In this document: positions 11,235-33,080 of the stretch, in pieces
Layout of the letters: the number at the start of each line of letters is the position of its first letter
Position numbering within the stretch: the stretch's first letter is position 1
From: Candidatus Limnocylindrales bacterium
GTDB lineage: Bacteria; Chloroflexota; Limnocylindria; Limnocylindrales; CSP1-4
Assembly (NCBI GenBank): GCA_025450915.1
Contig: JANWLH010000124.1
Coordinates: 356 to 64,355, forward strand
Reading direction: 5' to 3'
Length of the DNA stretch: 64,000 nucleotides
Translations under genes and position numbers: made by a program
Notes under the pieces: model-generated
Seen by the model: only the letters and a program-made list of their open reading frames with translations
Database searches by the model: none
What the model was told of the DNA's origin: nothing

Positions 11235-11237
11235 CAC

Positions 11238-11251
11238 TGCAATCGGTTGCG
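11238..11251. promoter_or_regulatory. LacI-type operator candidate, site 2 (TGCAATCGGTTGCG)
   Basis: Lies 4 nt downstream of the -10-like hexamer, in the 83-bp divergent region between paralogue A and iolD. The half-sites TGCAATC/GGTTGCG are near-palindromic. Confidence 0.5.
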
Positions 11252-11264
11252 CAAGGAGACCACG

Positions 11265-13151: not shown

Positions 13152-13227
13152 TCCTCACGACATCCACCACGACCCACCTGGCGCGGCCTGCCCATCCGCG
13201 CCCGACCGAGTAGCGAGGGAGAGAACC

Positions 13228-14466: not shown

Positions 14467-14482
14467 CCCCTTCAACCGGCCG

Positions 14483-18205: not shown

Positions 18206-18232
18206 CCCGTAGCTCAGGAAGGCTCACTCCTC

Positions 18233-19075
18233 ATGCAGCTGGTCTACAACTCGAACTCGACGATGCACCTGCCGGCGCTGATGCAGATCCGGCTGGCCCG
18301 GGAGACCGGCTGGGACGGGGTCTTCCTGCGCGAGGAGCATCTCCGCCGGTATCTCGCCCAGGGCTATGACCTGGCCAGCCTCCGATCAGCGCTGGCCGGG
18401 CTCGAGCCGGTCAACCTGGGGGCCCTGGCCGACGTCGAACGCTGGCAGCCTGACGAGCGGTCGAACATGCTCCGCGAGGCGGACGCGCTGACGGAGCTGG
18501 CAGCCGGTATCGGCGCCACGTTCATCCAGCTCCTCAGCGGGCCGGTCCAGCCGGGCGGCACGTATCGCGGACCGGGCGGCCTGTCGCGCGCGGAACGGCG
18601 CGACGTGACGGCGAGCGCGCTGCGCGCCGTTGCTCGCACCGGCGCAGCGCGCGGGATTCGCTACTACCTCGAACCGATCGCCTGGACGCCCCTGGCGCCG
18701 CTCGCCGAGGCCGTCGAGGCGGTCGATGCAGCGGAGGCCGACAACATCGGCCTGGTCCTCGACTTCTGGCACCTCTGGCAGGCCGGAACGACCCCCGACG
18801 AGGTCGCCCGGCTCGATCCGCGGATCATCTTCGGGGTCGATTTCGCCGATTCGCTCGGTGCACCCGGTTCGCCCGACCCGGACCAGCTCAGCCGGCGGGT
18901 GTGGCCCGGTGAAGGTTCGATGCCCCTCGCCGAATGGGTTGACGCCGTGCGTGCCACCGGCTTCGATGGCTGGTGGGACAATGAGCTGTACAGCCCGTTT
19001 CATTGGGAGCGGGCGGACCCGGTCGCCGTGGCAAGCGGGCTTCGCGAGGTGCTCCTCGAGGTGCTCCGGACCTGA
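18233..19075 (+). CDS. Sugar phosphate isomerase/epimerase (xylose isomerase-like TIM barrel)
   Basis: 280-aa ORF with ATG start preceded by AGGAAGG. Blocks YYLEPIAW, LVLDFWHLW and DNELYSP are typical of the family. Confidence 0.85.
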   Translation: MQLVYNSNSTMHLPALMQIRLARETGWDGVFLREEHLRRYLAQGYDLASLRSALAGLEPVNLGALADVERWQPDERSNMLREADALTELAAGIGATFIQLLSGPVQPGGTYRGPGGLSRAERRDVTASALRAVARTGAARGIRYYLEPIAWTPLAPLAEAVEAVDAAEADNIGLVLDFWHLWQAGTTPDEVARLDPRIIFGVDFADSLGAPGSPDPDQLSRRVWPGEGSMPLAEWVDAVRATGFDGWWDNELYSPFHWERADPVAVASGLREVLLEVLRT

Positions 19076-19088
19076 CGCGCGGCGCTTG

Positions 19089-19117
19089 TTGACGATGTGC
19101 AGGGCCGATGCTACGGT
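19089..19117 (+). promoter_or_regulatory. Candidate promoter of the LacI-type regulator gene (TTGACG-17-TACGGT)
   Basis: -35-like TTGACG at 19089-19094 and -10-like TACGGT at 19112-19117, followed by operator site 3. Confidence 0.35.
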
Positions 19118-19122
19118 CGGTG

Positions 19123-19136
19123 CGCAATCGGTTGCT
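19123..19136. promoter_or_regulatory. LacI-type operator candidate, site 3 (CGCAATCGGTTGCT)
   Basis: The core GCAATCGGTTGC is identical to site 2. It lies 6 nt after the -10-like hexamer and about 10 nt upstream of the regulator start, consistent with autoregulation. Confidence 0.5.
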
Positions 19137-19145
19137 TTGCGGAGG

Positions 19146-20243
19146 ATGAGGTCCGGTGAGAGCGGGCGCTTGGTAGCCAGCGGATACCCGGCCGGACCAC
19201 GCCGGCGGATCCTGCTCAAGGATGTCGCCACCTCGGCGAACGTCTCCGGCTCGACCGCTTCGCGGGCCCTGGCCGACGACCCCCGGATCAGCCTGGCAAC
19301 CCGGCTGTCCGTGAAGGCCGCCGCGGCCGAGCTCAACTACGTCCCCAACGCGGCGGCTCGCAGCCTGCGCATGAAGCACACCCGGACACTCGGCCTGCTG
19401 ATCCCCGACCTGCGCGATCCGGTCCATGGCCAGGTCGCCTCGGGCTTCGAGGAAGAGGCCCGCCGGAGCGGCTACTGCGTGATCATGGTGGCCGGCGAGA
19501 ACGAGCCGGCCCGCGAACGCCTGGCCCTCAAGATCTTTGCCGAGCATGGCGCCGATGGTGTCGCGATCGTGTCCGGCGCGATCTCGCCCAGGGAGGCTCG
19601 CGAGCGGGTCGACCCGGAACGCCTGATCCTCGTCCAGCCCGACCACCACAGTCTGCCCCGCCGCGAAGGGGTCGTGCCGCCCGGGGTGATCCTGACCGAC
19701 GATGCCGGCGGGCTCAAGGCCGCCGTCAATCACCTCGTCGACAATGGCTACCGCCGGATCGCGTACGTCGAGGGCGGCGGCGGCGCGACCAACAAGGTTC
19801 GCTCGGAAGCAGTCGCGACCACCCTCCGCAGCCGGGGCGTCAAGACGGCGCTGCGCACGTTCGGCGCCGGCGACGACACCTGGCGGGACCCGACCGAGCT
19901 GGCTTCGGAGATCGCCACGGACCTGCCCGAAGCCCTGGTCTGCTACGACGACAAGCTGGCCCTCGCCCTGATGGACGCGTTGCGCAAGCTCAGGATCCGG
20001 GTCCCCGAAGATATCGGCATGGTCGGCTTCGACGGGATCCCGTTCGCGGCCATCTCCAATCCCCGCCTGACGACCGTGGCCACGCCGGCCGGCGAGATGG
20101 GCCGCCTCGCCGCGGCGTCGCTGGTCCGGACGATCCAGGTGGGTGCCCGCCTCGAGGCGGTCCTCCTGCCACCCGACCTGATCGTCCGCGAGAGCACCCG
20201 GACCTTGTCCCCGCCGACCCGCAACCACGACCCGCGGAGCTGA
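19146..20243 (+). CDS. LacI-family transcriptional regulator (candidate repressor of the inositol island)
   Basis: Lies in ORF 18630..20243. The HTH ILLKDVATSANVSGSTASRALADDPRISLATRLSVKAAAAELNYVPNAAARSL is followed by a periplasmic-binding-protein-like core. The start is ATG 19146 or TTG 19170 (uncertain). Confidence 0.9.
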   Translation: MRSGESGRLVASGYPAGPRRRILLKDVATSANVSGSTASRALADDPRISLATRLSVKAAAAELNYVPNAAARSLRMKHTRTLGLLIPDLRDPVHGQVASGFEEEARRSGYCVIMVAGENEPARERLALKIFAEHGADGVAIVSGAISPREARERVDPERLILVQPDHHSLPRREGVVPPGVILTDDAGGLKAAVNHLVDNGYRRIAYVEGGGGATNKVRSEAVATTLRSRGVKTALRTFGAGDDTWRDPTELASEIATDLPEALVCYDDKLALALMDALRKLRIRVPEDIGMVGFDGIPFAAISNPRLTTVATPAGEMGRLAAASLVRTIQVGARLEAVLLPPDLIVRESTRTLSPPTRNHDPRS

Positions 20244-20247
20244 CGGC

Positions 20248-21291
20248 ATGAGCACCTTCACGGTGGGCGACCCGGCCAGCATCGGAGTTGCCTTCCTGGG
20301 CGTCGGCCGGATGGGCCAGACCCATATCCAGACCCTTGGCGGGATACGCAACGTACGGGTCCTCGTGGTTGCCGACCAGGATCCGGCGGCGGCCGAGCGC
20401 GGGCGGCAGATTGCTCGGGCCGGACGGGCGACGAGCGACCCGCTCGATGCGATCAACGACCCGGCGGTCGAGGCGGTGGTCATCTCCACGCCCACCGATA
20501 CCCATGCCACCCTGATCGAGGCAGCCCTGCGGGCAGGCAAGGCGATCTGGAGCGAGAAGCCGATCGCCCTGAACCTGGTCGAGACCAGCCGGGTCGTCAA
20601 CGTGTGGCGGACGGCGGGCCTTCCCGTGCAGCTCGGCTTCATGCGCCGGTTCGACCCGGGCTATGTCCGGGCCAAGGCCCTGATCGATGCCGGCGAGCTG
20701 GGCCGGATCGAGCAGTTCCGGGCCTATTCACGCGACACCTACCCGCCGTCCGCCGAGTTCATCAAGGGCAGCGGTGGCTCGTTCCTGGACATGGCCGTCC
20801 ACGACTTCGACCTGGCCCGGTTCCTGGTTGGCGAGGTCGAGGAGGTCTCGTCGTGGGGCAATGTCCTGATCGACGAGCGGTTCAGCAGAGGTGACGACAT
20901 CGACACGTCGGTGACGATGCTCCGCTTCCGCAACGGCGCCCTGGGCGTTGTCGAGATGTCGCGTCGCTCCGTCTGGGGCTACGACATCCGGACCGAAGTG
21001 GCCGGCGCAACGGGCAAGGTCGTCGTCGAGGCGCCCGTCAAGACGCCGATCACCTTCTCGCGCCGGTTCGGCTTCGAGGGCGATCACTACGAGAACTTTC
21101 CCGACCGCTTCGAGGTCGCCTATCGGCTCGAGCTCGAGGCGTTCTTCGAGACGCTGGCGGCAGGGCGAACGCCCACGCCGGGACCCGAGGAGGCCCTCGA
21201 AACACTGCGCCTGGCCGTTGCCGCCCGGCGCAGCTGGCGCGAAGGCCGGCCGGTGAAGCTCGACGACGTGACGATCGAGAATCCGGACTGA
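20248..21291 (+). CDS. iolG: Gfo/Idh/MocA-family oxidoreductase, inositol 2-dehydrogenase-like (IolG)
   Basis: 347-aa ORF. Rossmann N-terminus VAFLGVGRMGQTH, EKP motif (IWSEKPIA), and VQLGFMRRFDPGYV, which closely resembles the B. subtilis IolG block VQVGFMRRYDSGYV (from memory). Confidence 0.82.
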   Translation: MSTFTVGDPASIGVAFLGVGRMGQTHIQTLGGIRNVRVLVVADQDPAAAERGRQIARAGRATSDPLDAINDPAVEAVVISTPTDTHATLIEAALRAGKAIWSEKPIALNLVETSRVVNVWRTAGLPVQLGFMRRFDPGYVRAKALIDAGELGRIEQFRAYSRDTYPPSAEFIKGSGGSFLDMAVHDFDLARFLVGEVEEVSSWGNVLIDERFSRGDDIDTSVTMLRFRNGALGVVEMSRRSVWGYDIRTEVAGATGKVVVEAPVKTPITFSRRFGFEGDHYENFPDRFEVAYRLELEAFFETLAAGRTPTPGPEEALETLRLAVAARRSWREGRPVKLDDVTIENPD

Positions 21292-21321: not shown

Positions 21322-23904
21322 TCAGGGCCTGGCGATGCGCCGCCGGAGCGTCTCGAGGCTCGAGTCGAAGAAATCGACCATCCGGGCCCGCTCGGACGGC
21401 TGGGCGATCGCGGCCAGCTCGGCCACCCAGGTCCGCGCCCCGAGCATGATCTGCTCGACGAGCGCGCCGTCCTGCAGCGCAGGGATGAGCGGTGAATCCC
21501 GGACCTCGACGTAGACCGGCGAAGTGTGCGCGGCCATCGAGGTCGTGAACGCGGAGTGGATCTCGTCGGCGCTTCGTGAGCGCGCCGCGATCCAGGCGCC
21601 GGCGGTGACCTCGACCCGCTCGTGGAGGCGCAGCTCGCTCGACCCGGCGGGGTCGCTCGTCGCGGCGGCGACCCGCCCGTTGATCACGAGCTCGACGTGG
21701 GTGATCACCGGCTGGGCCGCCCGGGCACGAACGATGACGTCGAGCCGGCCGGCGGACGGCAGCGCGATGACCGCCCCCGGCTCGTGCCCGTCGACGGCCA
21801 GCTCGAGCACCGGCCCGGAGGTCACGAATGTCCTCCCGGCCCGAACCGCGGCCGCCCAGGAGTCGAAGGTCAGTGCGTCGTCGTCGAGAAGGTGCCCGTA
21901 GGTCCGGACCGCCCCGACCGGCACCTCGGCGGACATCTTGTCGGTACCGGCCACCACGGGCAGGCGGTAGCCCAGGTTCAGGAAGCGGTACCACTCGAGC
22001 ACGGCCGGGTCGTCGAGGCCGGGCGACAGCGCCTGGGTCTCGATTGCATCGATCTTGCCGGCCACGATATCGGCCGCGATCTCCGCGTAGGGCAGTGGGA
22101 AGTGAGCCGCGACGACGAGCCCGCCGGCGGCCCGGCAGCGGTCGGCCCAATCGGCGAGGAGGACGCTCAGGGCGCCGGCCATCCGTCCTTCCGGTGGACC
22201 GCCGCTGGCCAGCGGGCTGGTGGGCCGGTGGGCGCCCAGCAGGGCCAGGTGGCCGAGCATGTTCTGGCGGTTCTCCGTCCCGACCACGATCATCCGGCGC
22301 CCGGCCGGATCGGCCAGCGAGCCGAACGGCAGGTCGGCGACGTTCGTGAACAGGTCGCCCCACTGGGCCGCGAGGAGGTTCACGAGGTCGAGGTCCTCGG
22401 CCGCCGCCTGGAGGAGTGCGCTCGACGGCGAGAGGAAGTGGACGTGGGTGTCCGCAGTCACCCAGCGCCCGGCATGGAGGTCGATCGCCCGCTCGAGAGG
22501 CAGCTCGAGCCGGCCGGTTGATCCATCGATCGCCAGCCGGGCTCGATACGGCCGCCGGTCGAAACCGCCGACGACCTCGACGTCGACGGCCCCCTGCGGC
22601 AGGTCGATCGAGAACCGGCCGGGAACGTAGGCGTAGGCCGCGGAGCCGAGGATCAGGTCGGCTCCGGTGTCTTCGAAGAACCCGGGATTGATCTCGTCGC
22701 GGTGGCCGCGCGGTGGGAGATAGCGGCCGTCGGCCGTCGTGAACCGGACGCGCGCCGGGATGCGCTCACCGCTCGGCGGGTCGACGATCTCGACGTCCAC
22801 TGGGAGGTCCGCGGCCGGGAGCAGCTCGATCGACCGGCGGCCAGCCGGGTCGGAGCCGGGGCTCCCCGCCAGCAGGTCCCGGCCGGCGATCCTCCAGCCA
22901 TCGAGGCTGAGCAGGCCGTCCGGGGCCAGCGCCAGGTCGACGATCAGCTCCGGCGGGCGACCGGCCTCGCGCTGGGTCCGATCGCTGCCCCAGCCGATGA
23001 CGGCCGAGCCGCTCCCGTCCCCGTCCGCGGCCGGCGCCGCGCGAGCCCGGCGTGTCCGGATGATCGTGCCCAGGTCGACCCGTGCCTCGTCGCCGGCCAG
23101 CCCGCCGATCCGCACCTGGAAGCGCGGGCTGTGCGCGAGCGGATTGGCCGACCCGCGAAACACGCTGACCGCCGCGAGGATCAGGTCGCTGCCCGGCCGG
23201 CCGGCGCTGAGTGGCTCGAGCTGGAGGGCGACGGGCACGGCGCCAGGACCAAGCTCGATGGCGTGGAGCCAGAGGAGCGCGTCGTCGGTGGCGCTGGGCA
23301 CGAAGTCGGTCATCCCGGTCTGGCTCGTGCCGTACGTCCCGGGCATGATTGTCAGTGTTCCGGACTGCCCGGTGGGCGCATACCGGCCCGGCTCCTGGAT
23401 CGCGTGCGGACCGCGCCAGTCGAGCACCTCGTTATTGCGGTGGGCGATCGCCGCGAACGCTCCGGATCCCCAGCCCAGGATCCCGTCGTTGACCTCGAAC
23501 CGACGGCGGATCACGCGCGCCGTCCTGCGCCCCGCCGTGTCGACGACCGTGTACCGCGCCAGCTGCTCGCCGACCGGCACGACATGGCCGACTGCCAGGC
23601 CGGCCGGCCGCCGGCCGGCGTCGTCCCGCCAGGTGTCACACAGGTGGGCGACCAGGAGGTGGCTGGCCGGCCCGACATTCCCGATCTCGATCGTGATCGG
23701 CCGATCGATCAGGACCCAGCGCGCGTCCGGTGATCCGGGACCCAGCTCGAACGGCAGCCCGTGGAAGACCTGGCGCCCGCTTGGCAGGCGCCCCAGCGCG
23801 GCCCCGTAGAGGTCCTGGAAGCGCGGGCCGAGCCCGCTCTCGGTGGCGTTCCGCCAGTGGTCGATGTCGACGGTCGCGGCGAGCGGACTGCCGCTCACGG
23901 ACAT
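21322..23904 (-). CDS. Large PHP-domain metallohydrolase-like protein (CehA/McbA-like), paralogue B, 860 aa
   Basis: Collinear with paralogue A over its full length. Shared blocks include LVAHLCDTWRD/VVAHFADSWRD, RRRFEVNDGILGWG/RRRFEIADGIIGWG, TADTHVHF/TSDSHVHF, GTENRQNMLGHLALLG and AGTDKMSAEVPVGAVRTY. Confidence 0.85.
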   Translation of the reverse strand: MSVSGSPLAATVDIDHWRNATESGLGPRFQDLYGAALGRLPSGRQVFHGLPFELGPGSPDARWVLIDRPITIEIGNVGPASHLLVAHLCDTWRDDAGRRPAGLAVGHVVPVGEQLARYTVVDTAGRRTARVIRRRFEVNDGILGWGSGAFAAIAHRNNEVLDWRGPHAIQEPGRYAPTGQSGTLTIMPGTYGTSQTGMTDFVPSATDDALLWLHAIELGPGAVPVALQLEPLSAGRPGSDLILAAVSVFRGSANPLAHSPRFQVRIGGLAGDEARVDLGTIIRTRRARAAPAADGDGSGSAVIGWGSDRTQREAGRPPELIVDLALAPDGLLSLDGWRIAGRDLLAGSPGSDPAGRRSIELLPAADLPVDVEIVDPPSGERIPARVRFTTADGRYLPPRGHRDEINPGFFEDTGADLILGSAAYAYVPGRFSIDLPQGAVDVEVVGGFDRRPYRARLAIDGSTGRLELPLERAIDLHAGRWVTADTHVHFLSPSSALLQAAAEDLDLVNLLAAQWGDLFTNVADLPFGSLADPAGRRMIVVGTENRQNMLGHLALLGAHRPTSPLASGGPPEGRMAGALSVLLADWADRCRAAGGLVVAAHFPLPYAEIAADIVAGKIDAIETQALSPGLDDPAVLEWYRFLNLGYRLPVVAGTDKMSAEVPVGAVRTYGHLLDDDALTFDSWAAAVRAGRTFVTSGPVLELAVDGHEPGAVIALPSAGRLDVIVRARAAQPVITHVELVINGRVAAATSDPAGSSELRLHERVEVTAGAWIAARSRSADEIHSAFTTSMAAHTSPVYVEVRDSPLIPALQDGALVEQIMLGARTWVAELAAIAQPSERARMVDFFDSSLETLRRRIARP

Positions 23905-23930
23905 CCGGGCCGCGATCCGCGCTGTCCATA

Positions 23931-23959
23931 TTGACGGGCCATATACCAGACGCTAGCAT
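23931..23959 (+). promoter_or_regulatory. Candidate promoter of the Pot-type importer operon (TTGACG-17-TAGCAT)
   Basis: -35-like TTGACG at 23931-23936, a 17-nt spacer, and -10-like TAGCAT at 23954-23959, in the 104-bp divergent region shared with paralogue B. Confidence 0.4.
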
Positions 23960-23961
23960 CG

Positions 23962-23975
23962 TACAAACGGTTGCA
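23962..23975. promoter_or_regulatory. LacI-type operator candidate, site 4 (TACAAACGGTTGCA)
   Basis: Begins 3 nt after the -10-like hexamer and shares CGGTTGCA with sites 2 and 3. Confidence 0.45.
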
Positions 23976-24008
23976 CAAGAGGATGCTTGATGCCCGGATC
24001 TCGAGCCT

Positions 24009-25136
24009 GTGGTCACCAACCAGCCCTGGCCTGGGCGTCCCGCGGACTCCGACTTGGCTGAGCCGGTTCCCGCGATCGAGCTACGCCACGCGACGAAACG
24101 ATATGGCGAAGCCGTCGCCCTCGATGACGTCTCGATGGTCATCCAGCCGGGCGAGTTCTTCTGCCTGCTGGGCCCCTCCGGTTGCGGCAAGACGACGACC
24201 CTCAACCTGATCGGTGGGTTCATCCCGCTGACTTCGGGCGACCTGCTGATCGAGGGTCACACGGTCAACGACCTGCCGCCCCACAAGCGCAATGTGAATA
24301 CGGTCTTCCAGAGCTACGCCCTCTTTCCCCACATGACCGTGGCGGAGAACGTTGCCTTCGGCCTGCGCATGGAGAAGCTGTCGAAGGCCGACATCGCCCA
24401 GCGCACCCGTGAGTACCTGGAGCTCGTCGGGCTGAGCGGCCTCGCCGGTCGCCTGCCGGCGCAGATGTCGGGCGGGCAGCAACAGCGGGTCGCCCTGGCG
24501 CGGGCTTTGGCCAAACGGCCGGCGGTGCTGCTCCTCGACGAGCCGCTCGGGGCCCTGGACCTCAAGCTCCGCAAGCAGATGCAGACCGAGCTGGCCCGAA
24601 TCCATCGGCAGGTCGGGACGACCTTCGTCTTCGTCACCCACGACCAGGAAGAGGCCCTGTCGATGGCGACCCAGATCGCCATCATGTCGAACGGCACGGT
24701 CCTCCAGCAGGGCTCCCCACGGGAGGTCTACGATCGGCCCGCGAACCGGTTCGTGGCCGATTTCGTCGGCGACACGAACTTCCTGGCGGGTACCGTCCGA
24801 CGCGACGGTGGCCAGGCCGTCTTCGATGTCGGCAGCGCGGTCGTGGACGTGCAGGGCGACGCCGAGGCGGGGCCGGCGACGCTGATGATCCGCCCCGAGT
24901 TCCTGGCCCTGCGCCAGGGCGACGCGACCGACGGCCCGCGCGGATTGACGGCCCGCGTCGTCAACGTCGCCTTTCTGGGCAATCACACGCGAATCACGGT
25001 CTCCACCGCGGCAGGCGAGATGGTGGTGGTGAGACCGCACGGGACCAGGGATTCGACCGCAGACACGCAGCGCGAATTGGGTGAGGAGGTTTGCGTATGG
25101 TGGCGAACCGAGAACGCAGCACTGATCCGCGAGTAG
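24009..25136 (+). CDS. ABC transporter ATP-binding protein, PotA-like
   Basis: Walker A GPSGCGKTT, signature MSGGQQQRVALARAL, Walker B LLLDEPLGALD, and VFQSYALFPHMTVAENVAFGLRM, which is typical of PotA-type ATPases. The start (GTG 24009) is uncertain because there is no clear RBS. Confidence 0.88.
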   Translation: MVTNQPWPGRPADSDLAEPVPAIELRHATKRYGEAVALDDVSMVIQPGEFFCLLGPSGCGKTTTLNLIGGFIPLTSGDLLIEGHTVNDLPPHKRNVNTVFQSYALFPHMTVAENVAFGLRMEKLSKADIAQRTREYLELVGLSGLAGRLPAQMSGGQQQRVALARALAKRPAVLLLDEPLGALDLKLRKQMQTELARIHRQVGTTFVFVTHDQEEALSMATQIAIMSNGTVLQQGSPREVYDRPANRFVADFVGDTNFLAGTVRRDGGQAVFDVGSAVVDVQGDAEAGPATLMIRPEFLALRQGDATDGPRGLTARVVNVAFLGNHTRITVSTAAGEMVVVRPHGTRDSTADTQRELGEEVCVWWRTENAALIRE

Positions 25137-25160
25137 CGACATTGATTGGAGGAGGATGGA

Positions 25161-26339
25161 ATGGCTGATCTCAACCGGCATCTCGGTCGCCGAGAGTTCC
25201 TGAGACTCGCCGGGGCGGTCGGAGCAACCGCCGGCCTGGGCGCGTTCCTGGCGGCCTGCGGGGCGAGCGGTGCGACCGCGACGCCGCCGGCGGCGAGCTC
25301 CGCCCCCGTGGCCTCGGGCGCCGCTCCGTCAGCAGCCGCGACGCCCGGGCCGACCGGCACGTTCAACTGGCTCACCTGGGGCGACCACTGGTACCAGGCC
25401 GAGATGGACAAGATCGCGGCCGACATCGGGATCAAGGCGAACATCACCAGCTTCAGCGACGACATCGACGCCTACACGAAGGTCCAGCAGGTCGGCGGCC
25501 AGATCGACCTGGTCTCGGAAGACGCCCTGTGGGTGCCGTACTTCTACCAGCACCAATTGATCGATGCGTTCGACATCAACTCACTGAAGGTGGCCAGCCA
25601 GCTGTACTCGGTCGCCCGCGAATTCTCGATCTGGACCAGCCCCGCCGGCTACCTCGGCTACCCGAACGGCTGGGCGCCGATCCAGATCACCTACGACCCC
25701 GCTCACGTGACCCCGGGCGCCGACTCGTGGCAGCTCCTGCTGGACCCGAAGTACAAGAAGCGCGTCGTCGTCGAGGACCAGCCGGTCGAGGTCATGGCCT
25801 ACATGGGCAAGGCCGCCGGTGTCAAGGATCCCTACAACATGACCGACGCCGAGGTCGCCCAGGCAAAGGCGCTCCTCGTCCAGCTCAAGCCGAACATCCT
25901 GCGCCTCGCGCCGCAGGCCACCGACACCGTCGCGGCCCTCAAGAACGGCGAGGCCTGGATCGCGACGATCAACCTCGGTGCCGACACGGCGGTCATGGAC
26001 CAGGGTGGGCCGAAGCTGACCACGTTCACGCCCAAGGAAGGCTCGATCGGCTGGATGGACGCCGAGATGCTCGTCCACGGCGGGGCCAACAACAACCTGC
26101 TGATGCCGTTCCTCGAGGTCCACGAGCAGGCTGAATACGTTGCCGCCAACTTCATGATCAACCGCCGGCCACTCTTCAGCGAGGCGGCCTACAAGCTGCT
26201 GATCAACCAGGGCCAGCAGGAGCTCGCCGATCACCTGCTCTTCAACAAGCCCGAGACGGTCAACACGATGACCCTCAAGGGTCCGGGTACCTCGACCCAG
26301 GCCGCGATCGCCGCGTTCAACGACGTCTTCGGCTCATAG
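25161..26339 (+). CDS. ABC substrate-binding lipoprotein, PotD/PotF-like (amine-type binding protein), Tat signal
   Basis: ATG 25161 is preceded by GGAGGAGG (25148-25155). Twin-arginine RREFLRLAG plus lipobox LAAC. The mature part resembles spermidine/putrescine-type binding proteins. Confidence 0.88.
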   Translation: MADLNRHLGRREFLRLAGAVGATAGLGAFLAACGASGATATPPAASSAPVASGAAPSAAATPGPTGTFNWLTWGDHWYQAEMDKIAADIGIKANITSFSDDIDAYTKVQQVGGQIDLVSEDALWVPYFYQHQLIDAFDINSLKVASQLYSVAREFSIWTSPAGYLGYPNGWAPIQITYDPAHVTPGADSWQLLLDPKYKKRVVVEDQPVEVMAYMGKAAGVKDPYNMTDAEVAQAKALLVQLKPNILRLAPQATDTVAALKNGEAWIATINLGADTAVMDQGGPKLTTFTPKEGSIGWMDAEMLVHGGANNNLLMPFLEVHEQAEYVAANFMINRRPLFSEAAYKLLINQGQQELADHLLFNKPETVNTMTLKGPGTSTQAAIAAFNDVFGS

Positions 26340-26362
26340 GGCATCGACTAGCCAAACCCGAG

Positions 26363-27280
26363 ATGACCGTGGCTTCCGACGGCGGGGTCCCTTCGGGCCC
26401 AGCCGCCGGATCCTCGTCCGGGCTCGTCAAGCGATTCGGCAGGGCCCTACCGGCCCTGCCGGGCCTTGCCGTGCTCCTCTTCCTGTTCCTGGTCCCGATG
26501 GCGATCATGTTCGTGTTCAGCTTCTGGCGCACGAACAACGACTTCGTCGTCGTGCCCGAGTGGAACCTCGGCAACTACGCCCGGTTCTTCGTCGAGGGAA
26601 CCTACCTGCGGACCTTCATCAAGACCCTGATCATGGCGGGCCTCGTCACCGTGGCGGCCCTCGCGATCGGCCTGCCCTTCGCCTACTTCCTCGTGCGCTA
26701 CACGGGCAAGCTGACCCAGCGCGTGATCCTGCTGGCGGTCATCGTTCCGTTCTGGACGAGCTACCTCGTCCGGGTCTATGCCTGGCAGGCAATCCTCGGC
26801 GAGCACGGCGCGCTCAACCAGATCCTCCAGGCAATAGGGGTCATCAAGGTCCCCCTGGACATCTTCAATTACGACGATCCGGGCGTGTTCGTCGTCCTCA
26901 CCTACATCTACTTCCCGTTCGCCCTGCTGGCCCTGTATGCCTCACTGGAGAAGTTCGACTTCACCCAGCTCAACGCTGCCCAGGACCTCGGAGCGCGGCC
27001 GGACCAGGCGTTCCGGCACATCCTGCTGCCCCAGATCCGGGCCGGGATCATCACCGCCTGCATCTTCGTGTTCATCCCGATCCTGGGTGAGTTCCTGACG
27101 CCGACCCTGGTGGGCGGCGCCCAGAGCAGCCTGATCGCGAACCTCGTGCTGAACTTCCTGCGGAATGACCAGTTCGCGGAGGGCGCCGCCCTGGCCATCA
27201 TCATTGCGGCCTTTGTGACCGCGATCATGATCGTGTTCCGGAAGTCGTTCCGGGTTGAGGACGTGGTCACCAGTGGCTAG
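26363..27280 (+). CDS. ABC transporter permease (PotB-like)
   Basis: 305-aa ORF with six hydrophobic helices and an EAA-type loop (LNAAQDLGARPDQAFRHILLPQ). Confidence 0.88.
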   Translation: MTVASDGGVPSGPAAGSSSGLVKRFGRALPALPGLAVLLFLFLVPMAIMFVFSFWRTNNDFVVVPEWNLGNYARFFVEGTYLRTFIKTLIMAGLVTVAALAIGLPFAYFLVRYTGKLTQRVILLAVIVPFWTSYLVRVYAWQAILGEHGALNQILQAIGVIKVPLDIFNYDDPGVFVVLTYIYFPFALLALYASLEKFDFTQLNAAQDLGARPDQAFRHILLPQIRAGIITACIFVFIPILGEFLTPTLVGGAQSSLIANLVLNFLRNDQFAEGAALAIIIAAFVTAIMIVFRKSFRVEDVVTSG

Positions 27281-27302
27281 GGGGACCAGCCCGCTCGAGA
27301 CG

Positions 27303-28133
27303 ATGCCGGTCAGCCGCTTCGCCCGGCAGACGCGCTGGTCGCTGATCGTCCTGACGGGCGCGATGCTGGCCTTCCTGTACCTGCCGATCGCGTTCCTGAT
27401 CCTGTTCTCGTTCGAGGACGCGGCGACGCCGGGCCTCCCGATCACCGGGCTGACCCTGCACTGGTACCAGGTGCTCGCGTCGGATTCGGCGATCCAGAGT
27501 GCCCTGCTGACCTCGATCGAGGTCGCTGTCGTGGTCACGATCATCGCCTCGATCGTGGGCACGATGGTCGCCTTCCCGCTGGTCCGCCGTGGCGTCCGCG
27601 CCCCGGGCCTGCTCCGGCTCGGCTTCACCCTGCCGATCATGATCCCGGGCTTCCTGATCGGGATCGGGCTGCTGATCTTCTTTCGCCAGGGGCTCCATCC
27701 GCTGATCGATGTCCAGCTCGGCCTGTACACCGTGGTCGCCGGCCACCTGGTCTTCACGATCCCGTTCGTGGTCCTGATCGTCGCTTCCCGACTGCAGGGC
27801 TTTGACCGCCGCCTCGAATGGGCCGCCGCGGATCTCGGAGCGGGGCCGTGGCGGACGCTCCGCCACATCGTCCTGCCCTTGATCGCGCCGGCGATCCTTG
27901 CCGGTGCACTCCTGTGCGTGACCCTGTCGATCGACGAGTTCGTGATCACGTTCTTCCTCATCGGCCCGCAACAGACCCTGCCGCTGTACATCTACACGCA
28001 GATCAAGTTCGGGGTCACGCCCGAGGTCAACGCGATCGCGACGGTCATCCTCCTCGTATCCCTGTTGGCGGTCACGCTCGGCTCGATCCTGCTCACGAGC
28101 AGCCGCCGGCTGCGCCGCCGTCGGGCCGAATGA
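27303..28133 (+). CDS. ABC transporter permease (PotC-like)
   Basis: Lies in ORF 27255..28133. The EAA-type loop is LEWAAADLGAGPWRTLRHIVLPL. The start is ATG 27303, or GTG 27273 overlapping the previous stop (uncertain). Confidence 0.85.
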   Translation: MPVSRFARQTRWSLIVLTGAMLAFLYLPIAFLILFSFEDAATPGLPITGLTLHWYQVLASDSAIQSALLTSIEVAVVVTIIASIVGTMVAFPLVRRGVRAPGLLRLGFTLPIMIPGFLIGIGLLIFFRQGLHPLIDVQLGLYTVVAGHLVFTIPFVVLIVASRLQGFDRRLEWAAADLGAGPWRTLRHIVLPLIAPAILAGALLCVTLSIDEFVITFFLIGPQQTLPLYIYTQIKFGVTPEVNAIATVILLVSLLAVTLGSILLTSSRRLRRRRAE

Positions 28134-28143
28134 ACGAGCCCGC

Positions 28144-29145
28144 TTGAGCGGCCTCCTCGGCTCGCGCCCCGGTCCGGAGGCACCGCTCCGAATCGGGTTC
28201 CAGGTCTGGGGCATGTCTGCAGGCTGGGATGAGCTGATGGCCGCCGGCGAACGGATCGAGGCCCTCGGCTTTGCCAGCCTGTTCGCCAACGACCACCTGA
28301 TGCCGATCCTGGGCGACGCCGACGGGCCCGTCCTGGGCGCCGAGGGACCGGTCTTCGAGGGCTGGATGACGCTCGGTGCCTGGGCGGCAAGGACGAGCCG
28401 GGTGCCCCTCGGGGTCCTGGTCTGTGGCGTCGGCTATCGCAACGTCGGGCTGACCGTCAAGATGGCGACCGCCCTCGACCACGCGAGCGCGGGCCGGGCG
28501 ATCCTCGGCATCGGTGCGGGCTGGCACGAGCCCGAGCACCGCGCATTTGGCTACGACGCGCTCTCGCTTGGCGACCGGATCAGCCGCCTCGACGAGGCGA
28601 GCCTCCTGGCCCGCGGGCTGCTCGACGGCGACGCAGTGACCCTGGCCGGCCGCTGGGTACGGGCCGAGGCAGCACGCAACGATCCGGAACCGGTCCAGGC
28701 GCACCTGCCGCTGCTGATCGGGGGCAGCGGCGAGAAGCGAACCTTGCGGATCGTCGCCCGGGACGCGGACATCTGGAACGGCGAGGGCGACCCCCAGACG
28801 TACGCCCGAAAGAGTGGCGTGCTCGACGAGCACTGCGCCGCGATTGGTCGCGATCCACGTTCGATCCGGCGGACCGTGGGCATCCAGCCCATCTGCATCA
28901 GGTCGTCACGGTCCGCGGCGGTCGACGCGCTCGCGACCATTCTCGCGAGGCAGGGCGGCAGCGCAGCCGATGCCCGGGCGTGGGCAGCCAGCTCGCCCCT
29001 CGCCGACACCGAGGAGACGGTGATCGGCTTCCTGCGGGGCTGGCACGAGGCCGGTGCCGAGGAGGTGGTCGTCGACCTGCCGATTCCCGTCGACGACGAG
29101 ACGATCGAACGCCTGGCCGGCTCGGTCCGGACGCGCCTGGCGTGA
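28144..29145 (+). CDS. LLM-class F420-dependent oxidoreductase-like protein
   Basis: 333-aa ORF. Blocks LRIGFQVWG, LFANDHLMP, LGIGAGWHEPEH and LLIGGSGEKRTLRIVA are typical of the F420-dependent LLM subgroup. The start codon (TTG 28144) is uncertain. Confidence 0.82.
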   Translation: MSGLLGSRPGPEAPLRIGFQVWGMSAGWDELMAAGERIEALGFASLFANDHLMPILGDADGPVLGAEGPVFEGWMTLGAWAARTSRVPLGVLVCGVGYRNVGLTVKMATALDHASAGRAILGIGAGWHEPEHRAFGYDALSLGDRISRLDEASLLARGLLDGDAVTLAGRWVRAEAARNDPEPVQAHLPLLIGGSGEKRTLRIVARDADIWNGEGDPQTYARKSGVLDEHCAAIGRDPRSIRRTVGIQPICIRSSRSAAVDALATILARQGGSAADARAWAASSPLADTEETVIGFLRGWHEAGAEEVVVDLPIPVDDETIERLAGSVRTRLA

Positions 29146-29184
29146 TTCCCTGTCACTCCGTCCAAGCCAAGGAGGTTCACCCTG

Positions 29185-30186
29185 ATGCGTGCTGCCGTCT
29201 ATGAAGGCGAGGGCCGGCTGGTTGTCCGTGATGTTCCGGATCCGGTGCCGGCCGCCGACGAGGTCCTGATCGAGGTCGAAGCCTGCGGCGTGTGCGGGTC
29301 CGACGTCCAGATCATCAACATCCCGGCGGGCCATCCGTCGACCCCGCCGGTGATCATCGGCCACGAGTTCGTGGGCTGGATCCGGGCGGTCGGATCGGCG
29401 GTCCGCGATCTCGCGGTCGGCAGCCGGGTCGTCTGCGATCCCGATCCCAAGTGCGGCGCCTGCGACTCCTGTCGGGCCGGCCGGCCGGCCAACTGCACGA
29501 ATATCGTGGCGCTCGGCGTCTACCGCGACGGTGCGCTGGCGCAGTACGTCACCGCCCCGGCGAACAGCGTCTATCCGATCTCCGAGGACGTACCGGCGGA
29601 GCTCGCGGCCCTGGTCGAGCCCCTCGCCTGTGTTGTCAACGGAACAAACCGGGCCGGTCTCCGTCCGGGCGAATCGGTCGTCGTCTTCGGCGCCGGAGCG
29701 ATCGGCTGCCTGTTCACGGCGGTCCTCCACGCGGCCGGCGCCGCCCGGATCATCGTTGTCGAGCCGAGCGCGGCCCGTGCCCCGGTCGCCCGGGCGTTGG
29801 GCGCGGCCGACGTGCTCAGCCCGGACGACTGGGCAGCGCGGCGCGCCGAGCTCATGCCGGCCGGAGCGGACGTCGTCGTCGATGCCGTCGGGAGCGTCCT
29901 GCCCCAGGCGATCGAGGCGGCGGGGATGGGCGCCCGGGTGATCGTCTTCGGGATGAACCAGAACGCCCATCCGGCCGTCCACCAGGTCGAGATCGTCGAG
30001 AAGGGCCTGTCGATCCTGGGCTCGTACATCTCGAACTTCACGTTCCCCGCCGCCATCCGCCTGGTCGAGAGCGGCCAGCTGAACCTGGCCCCGATGATCA
30101 CCGCCACGATCCCGCTCGACGACACCGTCGCGGGGATCGCCCGGATCCGCTCGGGCGAGGCCGTCAAGATCGTCATCAAGCCGTGA
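29185..30186 (+). CDS. Zinc-dependent medium-chain alcohol/polyol dehydrogenase
   Basis: ATG is preceded by AAGGAGG. Catalytic Zn motif CGVCGSDV...GHEFVG, structural Zn cysteines CDPDPKCGACDSC, and Rossmann VVFGAGAIG. Confidence 0.9.
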   Translation: MRAAVYEGEGRLVVRDVPDPVPAADEVLIEVEACGVCGSDVQIINIPAGHPSTPPVIIGHEFVGWIRAVGSAVRDLAVGSRVVCDPDPKCGACDSCRAGRPANCTNIVALGVYRDGALAQYVTAPANSVYPISEDVPAELAALVEPLACVVNGTNRAGLRPGESVVVFGAGAIGCLFTAVLHAAGAARIIVVEPSAARAPVARALGAADVLSPDDWAARRAELMPAGADVVVDAVGSVLPQAIEAAGMGARVIVFGMNQNAHPAVHQVEIVEKGLSILGSYISNFTFPAAIRLVESGQLNLAPMITATIPLDDTVAGIARIRSGEAVKIVIKP

Positions 30187-30212
30187 TCGAAGAAGCTCCA
30201 GGGGAACCGACC

Positions 30213-31142
30213 ATGACCACCGCCTCCTTCCGGGTCGCGAGCGCTCCCGTCTCCTTCGGCGTCGATGAGGTCCTCAGCGACGACGCCTGGATGCCCGCCC
30301 CGGACGACATGCTCGACTGGATGGTCGATATCGGCTTCGAGGGGACCGAGCTCGGCCCGCCCGGGTTCCTCGGGGATGCCGCCCAGGTCAGGGAACGCCT
30401 GACGGGCCGGAACCTCGAGCTCGTCGGCGCGTTCATCCCCCAGCATTTCAGCCGGAACGAGCGGGCGGCCGAGGATCGGATCGTGCTCGACGACAGCCTG
30501 CGCGTGCTGGCCGAGGGCTCGCCCTCCGGCTCCCGCCCGTTCGCCGTCCTGGCCGACCACTTCGACGAACCGGTGCGCCTGGGGATGTCCGGCCGGATCG
30601 CGAACCATCCCGAGGCGTGGCTCTCGGACGCCCGCTTCCAGGCCCTCGTGGACAACCTGCATCGCGCCTCGGAGGTCTGCCGGGCCGCGGGCTTCGAGCC
30701 CGTCCTCCATCCCCACGCCGGGACGTACATCGAGACCGCCAGCGAGATCGCCCGGGTCCTCGAGGCGATCGACCCCTCGCTGCTGGGCCTGTGTCTCGAC
30801 ACCGGCCACTTCCGCTACGGCGGGGCGGACCCCACCCAGGCAGTCCACGACTATCACGATCTGATCCGCCACGTCCACATCAAGGACTGCCGGAGCGCCG
30901 TGATCGACAGCGTCGCGGCCGATGACAAGGGCCTCGAGGAGGCCCTGAGCCGGGGTGTCTTCTGCGAGCTCGGCGCCGGCGACTCGAAGATCGACGCCGT
31001 GATCGAGGCGTTGCGCGCCTACGACTACCAGGGCTGGCTGGTCATCGAGCAGGACCAGGCGCTGCGCTCCAGCGACACGCCCGAATCGGTCGTGGCCGGG
31101 CAGCGCGCCAATCGCGAGTACCTGCGCCACCTGGGGATCTAG
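30213..31142 (+). CDS. Inosose dehydratase-like TIM-barrel protein (IolE-like)
   Basis: Lies in ORF 29292..31142 with ATG at 30213. Blocks VLHPHAGTYIET, CLDTGHFRYGG, HVHIKD and GWLVIEQDQ parallel the B. subtilis IolE layout (from memory). Confidence 0.8.
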   Translation: MTTASFRVASAPVSFGVDEVLSDDAWMPAPDDMLDWMVDIGFEGTELGPPGFLGDAAQVRERLTGRNLELVGAFIPQHFSRNERAAEDRIVLDDSLRVLAEGSPSGSRPFAVLADHFDEPVRLGMSGRIANHPEAWLSDARFQALVDNLHRASEVCRAAGFEPVLHPHAGTYIETASEIARVLEAIDPSLLGLCLDTGHFRYGGADPTQAVHDYHDLIRHVHIKDCRSAVIDSVAADDKGLEEALSRGVFCELGAGDSKIDAVIEALRAYDYQGWLVIEQDQALRSSDTPESVVAGQRANREYLRHLGI

Positions 31143-32218
31143 TGGAGACGCCCCTGGGCCTGATGGCCCGTACGACGCCGACCCAGTACTGGAACGATTC
31201 GTGCTCGGTCGCCGAGCTCGAGTACGCGCTGGGCAACGGCGCCGTCGGGGCAACCTCGAATCCGACGATCGTGGGCGAGGTCCTCAAGAAGGAGCTCGCC
31301 ACCTGGCTGCCCCGGATCCGCGCGATTCGTGACGAACGCCCGACAGCCTCGGATGTCGAGATCACCTGGCAGCTGATCGAGGAGATGGCGATCGGCGGGG
31401 CGCGGATCCTGGCGCCCGTCTTCGAGCGGGTCGGCGGGCGCTCGGGCCGGCTGTCCATCCAGACCAACCCGACCCTCCATCGCGACGCGGCGGCGATGCT
31501 CGAGGAGGGCCGCCGCTTCTCGGGCCTCGCCCCGAACATGCAGGTCAAGTTCCCGGCCACCGCCGCCGGCCTGGAGGCGATCGAGGACGCGACCTTCCTG
31601 GGGATCTCGATCAACGGGACGGTCTCGTTCACCCTGCCCCAGGCCCTGGCGGTGGGTGCGGCCGTCGAGCGAGCGCTGGTGCGCCGAGAGGCGGCCGGCC
31701 TTGCTGTCTCCACGATGAGCCCGGTCTGCACGTTGATGATCGGCCGGCTCGATGACTGGATGAAGGCGATCTGCGAGCGCGACGACATCAGCATCGATCC
31801 AGCGGCACCGAACTGGGCCGGGATCGCGGTGCTCAAGCGGGCCGCCGCCATCTACCAGGAGCGGGGCTACCGGACCCGCCTGCTGGTCGCCGCCTACCGC
31901 CACCACCTGCACTGGTCCGAGCTGATCGGCGGCGACATCTCCCTGACGATCCCGTACGCCTGGCAGCGACGCTTCAATGCCTCGTCGATCGAGGTCCGTC
32001 CGCGCTTCGACGATCCCGTCCCGCCGGCGCTGCTCGACGAGCTCCAGGCGCGGATTCCCGACTTCGTCCGGGCCTACGAGCCTGATGGCCTGGCCGTGGC
32101 CGAGTTCGACGGCTACGGCGCGACGGTGCGCACCCTGCGCGGCTTCATCGGCTCGTACTGGGACCTCGTCCGGACGATCGACGACGTCCTGCTGCCGAAT
32201 CCGGACGTCCGGGCCTAG
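31142..32218 (+). CDS. Transaldolase-family protein
   Basis: GTG 31142 overlaps the preceding TAG. Blocks TTPTQYWNDS, GATSNPTI and NMQVKFPAT (Schiff-base lysine context). The start could instead be ATG 31163. Confidence 0.88.
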   Translation: METPLGLMARTTPTQYWNDSCSVAELEYALGNGAVGATSNPTIVGEVLKKELATWLPRIRAIRDERPTASDVEITWQLIEEMAIGGARILAPVFERVGGRSGRLSIQTNPTLHRDAAAMLEEGRRFSGLAPNMQVKFPATAAGLEAIEDATFLGISINGTVSFTLPQALAVGAAVERALVRREAAGLAVSTMSPVCTLMIGRLDDWMKAICERDDISIDPAAPNWAGIAVLKRAAAIYQERGYRTRLLVAAYRHHLHWSELIGGDISLTIPYAWQRRFNASSIEVRPRFDDPVPPALLDELQARIPDFVRAYEPDGLAVAEFDGYGATVRTLRGFIGSYWDLVRTIDDVLLPNPDVRA

Positions 32219-32258
32219 CGAGGCTCGGACAGCAGGCCGGCGTCCGAATCCGCGCGGT

Positions 32259-33080
32259 TCACGACACGCACGCATAGAGGTAGCGCCGGCCGACCCCCGG
32301 CGCATCGATCTCGAATCGGTACGCCGCCTTCGGCAGGGCCGTCCCGCGGGGCAGGGCGAACATCGCGACTGCACCAGGCCCGGCGTTCGGCAGGCGATAG
32401 CTGGCGTCGATCGGCTGGCCGCTCAGGGAGACGATCAGCGAGCGGACCCGCGAAAGCTGAACGTTCGGGCCATCGAGGTCGGCAACGGTCACCGCCGCCG
32501 CCGGGTCCATGCCCGGGTACGTCACGCCGAGGTAGAGGACCCGGTCAGAGGGCAGAGGAACGGCAAGGCGCAGCCGAGGGACCGCCTTCGCCGTGCAGGG
32601 CAGGTTCGGATGGCCCGGCCGCTCGATCGGCTTGGTGCTGAAGTTCACGCCCTGCTGGAGGACGAGCAGTGGCGCGCCTGATCCGGGCAGCGCGGTCGGA
32701 TGTGGCAGGGCAGGCTCCTCGGCAGGCCCGGCGAGCGTTGGGCTCAGCAAGGCGACAACCGTCCACTCGTTGTCGATGAGCGAGAGGTAGTCCGCCGTAT
32801 CGGGGGTGCCCGATTCCGCGCCCGGCCGCGGCGTGGCGGCCGGGCCGGCTGCCGCCGATGCTGCCGGCCGATTGGCGACTGCGGCCGACGACTGCGGGCC
32901 GGGTGATGCCGCGGGCCGCAGGCCGCCGCTCCACGGCTGCCAGACGAGCGTCGCGAGGAGGAGGCCGACGACGACCGCCAGGCCCACCGGCCGGCGGCTG
33001 CTGCCGCCGCCCAACGGCACGACGGGCTGTTCGAGCCGCGCCCGGACGGGGACCGGGTCGCCGGATCCGCCGTGAGTCAC
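32259..33080 (-). CDS. Membrane-anchored hypothetical protein (N-terminal TM helix, Pro/Ala-rich linker, ~170-aa extracytoplasmic domain)
   Basis: Lies in ORF 32259..33179. GTG 33080 overlaps the stop of the upstream PPOX gene (GTGA). The TM segment is GLAVVVGLLLATLVW. No family recognised. Confidence 0.6.
   Translation of the reverse strand: MTHGGSGDPVPVRARLEQPVVPLGGGSSRRPVGLAVVVGLLLATLVWQPWSGGLRPAASPGPQSSAAVANRPAASAAAGPAATPRPGAESGTPDTADYLSLIDNEWTVVALLSPTLAGPAEEPALPHPTALPGSGAPLLVLQQGVNFSTKPIERPGHPNLPCTAKAVPRLRLAVPLPSDRVLYLGVTYPGMDPAAAVTVADLDGPNVQLSRVRSLIVSLSGQPIDASYRLPNAGPGAVAMFALPRGTALPKAAYRFEIDAPGVGRRYLYACVS

Follow-up and report, generated by a model that had tools for sequence, protein, structure and literature searches.

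The DNA analyzed here, hereafter the window, is a stretch of 64,000 nucleotides from contig JANWLH010000124.1 (GenBank assembly GCA_025450915.1), and our subject is a run of eight genes on its + strand (24009-32218) that encode a Pot-family ATP-binding cassette (ABC) importer and four enzymes. The host is an uncultured soil member of the Limnocylindria (Chloroflexota), represented by a metagenome-assembled genome of 2.48 Mb that is ~70% complete and whose relatives are labelled Limnocylindrales or Chloroflexia; a look-up of sequencing runs gave sets of soil DNA and none of RNA. Searches with Pfam and NCBIfam profiles recovered eight open reading frames with the coordinates and folds that a first-pass annotation, made from the sequence alone, had given them. 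The first gene (24009-25136) encodes an ATPase of the PotA/PhnT type with a C-terminal TOBE_2 domain (ABC_tran, 120 bits; TOBE_2, 54 bits). It is followed by the gene for the substrate-binding protein, or receptor, which has a PotD/PotF fold and a remodelled pocket (25161-26339; SBP_bac_6, 38 bits), and by the genes for two BPD_transp_1 permeases, one PotB-like (26363-27280; 181 bits against the PotB equivalog, cut-off 348) and one PotC-like with an uncertain start (27255-28133; 199 bits against PotC, cut-off 326). Next come a luciferase-like (LLM) oxidoreductase that is probably F420-dependent (28144-29145; Bac_luciferase, 125 bits) and a zinc-dependent dehydrogenase of the medium-chain dehydrogenase/reductase (MDR) type that is probably NAD-linked (29185-30186; ADH_N and ADH_zinc_N). 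The run ends with gene 7, a predicted IolE-like inosose dehydratase with an AP_endonuc_2 TIM barrel (30183-31142; 153.6 bits against the IolE equivalog TIGR04379, cut-off 290), and gene 8, a transaldolase-fold enzyme of an iol-linked Q/K/M family (31142-32218; TAL_FSA, 121.8 bits). Outside this run, and divergent from it, lies the gene for a PHP/CehA-like hydrolase (21322-23904, - strand; no Pfam match at 1e-5), which shares the operator region and is conserved head-to-head with the importer.

The eight genes are tightly packed, with gaps of 24, 23, 10 and 39 nt and with overlaps of up to 26 nt between the two permease genes, of GTGA between the MDR gene and gene 7, and of TAGTG between genes 7 and 8. 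The small gaps and overlaps first reported are confirmed, as is the transaldolase GTG that overlaps the preceding TAG, while two starts are corrected: the receptor gene begins at ATG 25161 behind the ribosome site GGAGGAGG (TTG 25146 merely gives the longest frame), and gene 7 begins with the GTG that sits in its overlap, not with an ATG. Scanning of 23800-32600 yielded a sole sigma-70-like match (TTGACG-17-TAGCAT, 23931-23959, + strand), with no promoter-like site internal to the operon and no terminator-like site on the + strand. Directly after this promoter-like site lies a LacI-type operator, TACAAACGGTTGCA (23962-23975), the fourth of four sites of the motif in the window (6698, 11238, 19123 and 23962); the motif gives seven strand matches against 0.82 expected, and none of 100 shuffles reached seven. 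Comparison with relatives, which the first-pass annotation had called for, showed that the full eight-gene order together with the divergent PHP hydrolase is kept in six loci (L004, L005, L006, L011, L109 and L110; protein identity 71-96%), and that it is kept in part in a further set (L003, L116, L127, L128, L131 and L143). Such recurrence is far above chance. Because the junctions are tight, the lone promoter-like site is followed by an operator, no + strand terminator is found and synteny is kept in relatives, the genes are best read as one operon behind a shared operator, as had been supposed. We lean, a little more strongly than even, towards the explanation that these genes form one LacI-repressed transcription unit that would serve a multi-operon cyclitol (iol) regulon as its arm for uptake and entry; this judgement is a joint one on the operon, its substrate and the roles of genes 7 and 8.

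The partner operons of the regulon occupy 11229-21291 on the + strand and encode IolD, a DegT aminotransferase, an IolC-like kinase, IolB, a LacD-family aldolase, an EamA protein, a TIM barrel, LacI and an IolG-like dehydrogenase, with DegT, PfkB, LacI and GFO domains recognized by Pfam. IolD (884 bits, cut-off 715) and IolB (251 bits, cut-off 205) are genuine by score, and the LacD-type aldolase also exceeds its cut-off (190 against 184 bits); the IolC-like kinase (254 against 300 bits) and the IolG-like dehydrogenase, located with the LacI repressor after the iolD operon (336 against 355 bits), fall below theirs. IolA, a methylmalonate-semialdehyde dehydrogenase (MMSDH), is encoded on another contig of the host genome (712 bits, over its cut-off). 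Gene 7 is the sole IolE-like match in the assembly (153 bits, with the next best at 22 bits), and its top solved relatives are the IolE structures 3cny and 9zmu. In two loci, L012 and L079, copies of gene 7 at 59-60% identity lie after iolD and shortly before the gene 8 homologue (TAL), the order in L079 being iolD-TIM-iolB-TAL. There is good support for the prediction that gene 7 acts as IolE, supplying the diketone used by IolD and IolB, which the sister operon encodes. Since IolD needs the diketone made by IolE, and gene 7 is the only IolE-like sequence, the importer operon and the iolD operon appear to be functionally interlocked. The operon had initially been described as a pathway in its own right; this description is withdrawn, since the operon supplies the only IolE-like gene of the regulon and depends on the neighbouring iolG, iolD, iolB and DegT genes.

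Three other TIM barrels in the window (6710-7741, 7683-8570 and 18233-19075) were considered as candidates for the real IolE and rejected, their IolE scores being absent or negligible. The last of these, which has no IolE match, is a xylose-isomerase-like barrel (100 bits) that lies with an EamA-family transporter between the genes for the LacD-type aldolase and LacI (17093-19075, + strand). IolC-like kinases are encoded in the window (14483-15445, + strand) and at G410:C2:393813-394724, with scores of 254-258 bits against a cut-off of 300, where the true IolC of locus L040 scores 395; the specificity of the kinase in the host lineage may have shifted.

The importer is of the Pot family, as first proposed. 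Its ATPase passes the TIGR01187 potA subfamily model (367 bits, cut-off 355.6) and scores 377.5 bits against the PotA equivalog (cut-off 482) and 363.8 bits against PhnT2; the ATPase and permeases match the PotA, PotB and PotC equivalogs best, all under cut-off. By profile score, all three proteins are ABC importer components of the Pot/Phn subfamily. The receptor reaches only 39 bits against the PotD equivalog, far under the cut-off of 582. An AlphaFold model of it, built with 24 relatives (pLDDT 80.4; residues 1-61 form a disordered leader), was nearest to PotD and PotF in Foldseek searches (TM-score up to 0.90 on the target, E down to 1e-22). The top 30 matches comprise PotD, PotF, SpuD, SpuE, related putative spermidine/putrescine receptors and YdcS, and the opine receptor MotA is found lower, at ranks 33-47. 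Homologues of the receptor carry a twin-arginine translocation (Tat) signal (TAT_signal, PF10518), and the family consensus shows RRxFLK and a LAAC lipobox; the receptor is thus likely a Tat-exported lipoprotein. Protein-atlas clusters for the receptor bear only the generic label 'ABC substrate-binding protein'.

To map the pocket, we aligned the receptor by profile to E. coli PotD, which placed twelve positions that we take to be the ligand residues of PotD, with their roles likewise assumed. W34, W255 and D257 are kept as W73, W298 and D300, and E36 corresponds to D75, so that an acidic residue is kept; T35 is replaced by Ser, and the position of E171 holds a Glu that is unconserved in the family. 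The other six are changed (Y37 to H76, S83 to D121, Y85 to L123, D168 to Q207, W229 to N271 and Y293 to R336). These kept and changed residues, from W73, D75 and H76 through to R336, are invariant or nearly so across the family. In other words, the acidic and aromatic set that binds polyamines in PotD is only partly retained. This pattern suggests a pocket that has kept its ammonium anchor and is otherwise polar and partly cationic, which would make it ill-suited to a polyamine and suited to a hydroxylated, possibly anionic amine. The earlier view that this is not a normal polyamine binder is borne out by the low PotD score and by the six changed positions out of twelve.

The receptor family is rare in genomes, occurring in 6 of 401 sampled Chloroflexota (host included), and common in soil metagenomes, from which a homologue search returned 483 proteins and a metagenome scan 345 confirmed stretches. 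Linkage to other genes was counted over metagenome loci with contig room for the gene in question, which span receptor identities of 48-91% and several gene orders; because these loci come from related, non-independent genomes, the counts are not statistical tests. The MDR gene directly follows the permeases in 21 of 22 loci, and an IolE-like gene is near the importer in 11 of 19. Among the 29 loci with room for each of the remaining genes, the PHP hydrolase is head-to-head with the importer in 20, and near the importer are found LacI (20), LLM (15) and DegT at at least 55% identity (12). The order DegT-LacI-ATPase-SBP-permease-permease-MDR(-IolE), with SBP for the substrate-binding protein, is common (L145-L150, L152, L183 and L184), and four loci from genomes (L103-L106) hold the same gene set in still other orders, L103 reading LLM-ABCD-MDR-IolE. 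Many loci with altered gene order again have a DegT copy (59-77% identity) next to LacI and the importer, and IolD-like, IolG-like and IolB genes are near the importer in several. Because the linkage survives rearrangement, we argue that the importer, MDR, DegT, LLM and PHP hydrolase share one substrate. Since an aminotransferase is linked and the amine anchor is retained, an amine-bearing cyclitol or polyol, and more narrowly an amine-bearing cyclitol, is the best guess for that substrate; the linkage supports the same guess made by the first-pass annotation, short of proof.

The enzymes that travel with the importer give further indications. In the MDR protein the zinc ligands are complete (C34, H60, E61 and E145, plus the cluster C90/C93/C96/C104), and the Rossmann motif G169xG171xxG174 is followed by E193, the acidic nature of which suggests the use of NAD. 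No equivalog cut-off is reached (IolM, scyllo-inosose 3-dehydrogenase, 228.7 against 450 bits; Tdh, 203.8 against 380); the protein resembles IolM, threonine dehydrogenase and sorbitol dehydrogenase, its best solved relative is an uncharacterised zinc dehydrogenase (4ej6), and a tblastn search against plasmids gave one unannotated match. For the LLM protein, the best NCBIfam matches are all F420 subfamilies (TIGR03560, 202.5 bits, cut-off 231.4; TIGR03856, 188.7 bits, cut-off 243.7), with the non-F420 LLM families listed at 62 bits or less. The host is an F420 producer, since cofE (247.8 bits, cut-off 180.65) and cofD (282.5 bits, cut-off 257.45), which lie side by side at G000:C132:11192-13588, both exceed their curated cut-offs. 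Dependence of the LLM protein on F420 is therefore considered likely. A literature search returned no relevant paper on F420 enzymes acting on inososes or aminocyclitols. A P450 gene of the window (5439-6635, - strand) has copies at 60-63% identity directly after the MDR gene in loci L163 and L178; because these copies adjoin the importer-MDR unit, the P450 probably belongs to the same substrate module, where it may possibly O-demethylate a methylated cyclitol.

Gene 8 had first been read as a transaldolase that ties the pathway to pentose-phosphate intermediates, a reading that we abandon. Its scores against the transaldolase models are low (NF002881, 96 against 367 bits; TIGR00876, 63 against 234). 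In profile alignments to the solved transaldolases of C. glutamicum and N. gonorrhoeae (3r5e and 3clm), K136, N158, T160 and R202 are kept, and K136 aligns with the Schiff-base Lys of the IKIPAT/IKVPAT motif. At the position of the catalytic Glu (SIEV/SLEV in the two solved enzymes), which we take to be the equivalent of Glu96 of E. coli TalB, gene 8 has Q107 (SIQT). A comparison of 81 family members shows Q107, K136, M199, R202, R253 and H257 in every one, with the Met at the transaldolase Phe position (81/81). Fructose-6-phosphate aldolase (FSA) has Gln in place of the transaldolase Glu, and Tyr at the Phe position; gene 8 shares the Gln and fails this pattern at the Phe/Tyr position, where it has Met. 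Furthermore, the genome encodes a canonical short transaldolase of 220 aa (G000:C37:8192-8818; L001:1495-2157) with the Glu, Lys, Phe and Arg motifs intact, which is presumably the housekeeping enzyme; in view of this canonical form on contig C37, gene 8 was rejected for that role. It is a second, long-form transaldolase paralogue.

To characterize the genomic context of gene 8, neighbours were clustered over 80 loci of its family and the clusters named by Pfam and NCBIfam. A CoA-acylating malonate/methylmalonate-semialdehyde dehydrogenase of the IolA type lies directly downstream in 27/80 (median gap 48 bp; four representatives tested scored 544-625 bits, cut-off 448), iolB lies directly upstream in 20/80, and iolD is nearby in 22/80. 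In these other loci the family is placed between iolB and iolA or iolD, and the recurrent neighbour clusters of the 80 loci contain no transketolase-zwf-pgl set. In a maximum-likelihood tree, the window protein falls into a clade with 99% support whose other members come from iolD-iolB-TAL loci, and iol context is spread across the tree. We also searched ten genomes with an iol-linked family member for an IolC-type kinase: five had nothing above 111 bits, three had ambiguous PfkB proteins (146-166 bits), and two had an IolC-like protein at 250-258 bits, one of them being that of L005, which has the same eight-gene operon. A dihydroxyacetone (Dha) kinase is found in four of five genomes with an iol-linked family member and in the window, a test that does not discriminate between an aldolase and a transaldolase mode because other kinases could serve. 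Judged by its active-site pattern and its neighbours, gene 8 is not a pentose-phosphate transaldolase; its probable role is a kinase-independent cleavage of the IolB product that yields malonate semialdehyde. A literature search found no paper on a transaldolase in inositol catabolism. The presence of such a gene in a cyclitol cluster had been called unusual; the family in fact recurs widely in uncultured lineages.

A second, derived context of the family was seen at L013:6027-15127 and in ~27 other loci (e.g., L016, L017, L022, L029, L033 and L061). Here the transaldolase-like gene is found with an IolA-type MMSDH, a small cupin and a transketolase split into N and C halves, and faces genes for a GntR regulator, a 672-aa protein like phosphoenolpyruvate-utilising enzymes, a 388-aa protein without family and a molybdopterin oxidoreductase; neither iolB nor iolD is present. 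Split transketolase genes that are 47-59% identical to the copies in this context also lie upstream of the importer (L106:1071-2866, L128, L131 and L143), where in several loci they adjoin DegT, iolD, iolG and iolB-like genes, which hints that some lineages may use transketolase for an alternative cleavage.

Taken together, these observations suggest the following mechanism. A Pot-family importer would take up its ligand through a lipoprotein receptor of PotD fold, in which the proximal amine-anchoring residues W73, D75, W298 and D300 are kept and the remainder of the polyamine box is replaced by the polar or cationic residues H76, D121, Q207, N271 and R336. The imported compound would be amine-bearing and rich in hydroxyls, with an aminocyclitol, or something closely analogous to one, as the likeliest candidate. 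The zinc MDR and the F420-type LLM, together with the DegT and IolG of the sister operons, would convert it to an inosose, from which gene 7, as IolE, would make the diketone for the genuine IolD and IolB. The IolB product, 5-dehydro-2-deoxy-D-gluconate, can be viewed as a fructose-like ketose acid in which, counted from the keto end, a carboxylate replaces the phosphate tail. Gene 8 would form a Schiff base with it through K136, as its context and active-site pattern suggest, and split it into malonate semialdehyde, which would pass to IolA, and a three-carbon dihydroxyacetone (glycerone) unit. This unit would either be transferred to glyceraldehyde-3-phosphate, as in the sulfo-transaldolase (sulfo-TAL) pathway, or be released as dihydroxyacetone. 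Such a route would be kinase-free and would stand beside the IolC kinase and LacD-type aldolase of the host.

Several parts of this scheme have counterparts in known systems. As in the canonical iol pathway of Bacillus subtilis and Salmonella (IolG, E, D, B, C, J and A), the host regulon has IolD and IolB over their cut-offs, an IolA on another contig that also passes its cut-off, IolG-, IolE- and IolC-like proteins under theirs, and one repressor with shared operators. It differs from that pathway in that the importer is of the Pot type, the aldolase is of the LacD/DeoC family and not the IolJ class II type, iolE lies with the importer and not with iolD, and a DegT, a zinc MDR, an F420-type LLM, two PHP hydrolases and the transaldolase-like enzyme are added. 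With PotABCD and PotFGHI of E. coli (1POT, 8Y5I and 1A99), the importer shares the four-component architecture, the TOBE ATPase and the receptor fold; however, its receptor is only 16-22% identical to the Pot receptors, one of the six replaced positions is an invariant Arg, and its genomic partners are cyclitol enzymes rather than polyamine enzymes. For gene 8, the nearest parallel is the sulfo-TAL pathway enzyme SqvA/SftT (8BC3), described as a close homologue of pentose-phosphate transaldolases, which has their fold and cleaves a non-phosphorylated, anion-tailed fructose analogue without a kinase (PMC9594981). By analogy, gene 8 would release an acid aldehyde, keep the glycerone unit and need no kinase. 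In contrast to SqvA, gene 8 belongs to a long-form family in which Gln stands for the catalytic Glu and the Phe/Tyr position is occupied by Met; the substrate proposed for it would be a 2-deoxy-5-keto-aldonic acid.

Two further systems bear on the amine. Rhizobial rhizopine catabolism brings an aminocyclitol into the iol pathway by means of dehydrogenases, the IolE-like TIM barrel MocC and a dedicated binding-protein importer, and an oxygenase removes the O-methyl group. This rhizopine (scyllo-inosamine) locus is mocCABRDEF of Sinorhizobium meliloti (PMC6668481). The host regulon likewise pairs an importer, an IolE-like barrel and dehydrogenases with the iol pathway, plus a P450; it differs from moc in its binding-protein family, in having LacI and not MocR as regulator and in its type of oxygenase, and the DegT, zinc MDR, LLM and transaldolase-like enzymes are without moc counterparts. 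In the biosynthesis of 2-deoxystreptamine, an aminotransferase of the BtrS/NeoB type is paired with a zinc-dependent dehydrogenase of the NeoA type. The host similarly has a DegT that co-occurs with a zinc MDR, both of which would act on cyclitols, and the DegT scores 125-148 bits against 2-deoxy-scyllo-inosose aminotransferases; however, its context is catabolic (importer, repressor, IolD and IolB), it is nearer to KdnA (267 bits), and no glycosyltransferases or inosose synthase accompany it.

Other explanations of the same genes have to be weighed. In a plain inositol operon, the Pot-type importer would take up myo-, scyllo- or chiro-inositol, the MDR and LLM would be extra dehydrogenases for its isomers, and the link to DegT would be incidental. 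The IolE-like and transaldolase-like genes inside the operon and the operator that it shares with iolD and iolG all fit, as do the presence of DegT (at least 55% identity) in just 12 of the 29 loci with room and a Gaiellaceae locus (L075) that has the importer with IolE-like, GFO and transaldolase-like genes, and neither DegT nor MDR in view. We nonetheless think it unlikely, since the receptor retains the PotD amine anchors W298 and D300 plus D75 and W73, many rearranged loci have DegT copies (59-77%) beside LacI and the importer, and the inositol importers known to us all belong to other ABC families or to the major facilitator superfamily. Alternatively, the substrate could resemble the ligands of MotA, as an acyclic or conjugated amino-polyol of the opine or Amadori type, or it could be a phosphate or phosphonate ester with an aminoalkyl group; the MDR would then be a polyol dehydrogenase, the transaldolase-like enzyme would cleave the ketose so formed, and the PHP hydrolase would take off a phospho or acyl group. 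The receptor fold is indeed shared by MotA, a binder of mannopine and deoxyfructosyl-glutamine (Foldseek ranks 33-47), the ATPase and permeases score nearly as high against 2-aminoethylphosphonate transporters as against Pot, the invariant Arg336 of the pocket suits an anionic group, the nearest solved relative of the DegT acts on an open-chain sugar acid, and the MDR resembles sorbitol and threonine dehydrogenases. However, the module is persistently found among the ring-specific enzymes IolE-like, IolD or IolD-like, IolB and IolG-like, and no opine oxidase, deglycase or carbon-phosphorus lyase genes were seen in the window, which makes this reading decidedly improbable.

The notion that gene 8 is an ordinary transaldolase feeding pentose-phosphate intermediates accounts for its TAL_FSA score (121.8 bits) and for the retained Schiff-base Lys, Asn, Thr and both phosphate-site Arg residues, but we hold it to be very unlikely given that Gln replaces the catalytic Glu in 81/81, the score of 96 bits against a cut-off of 367, the canonical transaldolase elsewhere in the genome and the iolB, iolA and iolD neighbours. 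That the importer carries spermidine or putrescine and stands by chance ahead of unrelated sugar genes is scarcely credible: although JGI labels homologues as 'spermidine/putrescine-binding protein' and PotD/PotF provide both the fold and the nearest solved structures, the receptor scores 39 against 582 bits for the PotD equivalog, has six of twelve ligand positions changed (including D168Q, W229N and Y293R), and is linked to the MDR in 21/22 loci, with no internal promoter-like site or terminator. For the explanation we favour, that of one operon importing an amine-bearing cyclitol into the iol regulon, there are counterweights too. The linkage counts draw on related genomes, the host genome is only ~70% complete, and the IolE, IolM, LLM and Pot matches are all under their NCBIfam equivalog cut-offs. 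DegT is encoded in a partner operon and not in the eight-gene operon, its closest solved relative, KdnA (267 bits), acts on a sugar acid, and it reaches only 125-148 bits against solved inosose aminotransferases; in L075, moreover, neither DegT nor the MDR is in view. Gene 8 has neither the transaldolase Glu nor the FSA Tyr for its acid-base chemistry, and it is dispensable for closing the pathway, since the host has both a LacD-type aldolase and an IolC-like kinase (254 bits). Because this kinase/aldolase route is also present, we suppose that gene 8 would be a parallel, ATP-saving branch or serve a variant intermediate.

The breakdown of inositol is textbook knowledge. Aminocyclitols, as rhizopines and aminoglycoside cores, matter both ecologically and medically; to our knowledge, their catabolism is barely known outside the rhizobial moc genes. 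The locus raises the hypotheses that a receptor of the polyamine type has been adapted to a hydroxylated amine, that F420 is used in cyclitol oxidation, and that a transaldolase-fold enzyme closes the pathway without ATP. The receptor and its linked zinc MDR form a compact two-protein entry for finding the substrate. More speculatively, and we regard this extension as doubtful, natural aminocyclitols may be catabolised by a new route in abundant uncultured soil Chloroflexota, consisting of a PotD-derived receptor, a degradative DegT and zinc MDR, an F420-dependent cyclitol dehydrogenase and a kinase-free cleavage by a transaldolase-fold enzyme, with scyllo-inosamine or rhizopine-type compounds, or streptamine or 2-deoxystreptamine derived from aminoglycosides, as candidate substrates. 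If the substrate were indeed an aminoglycoside core or a rhizopine-like compound, the operon would reveal the means by which antibiotics or plant-microbe signals are consumed by a dominant group of uncultured soil bacteria.

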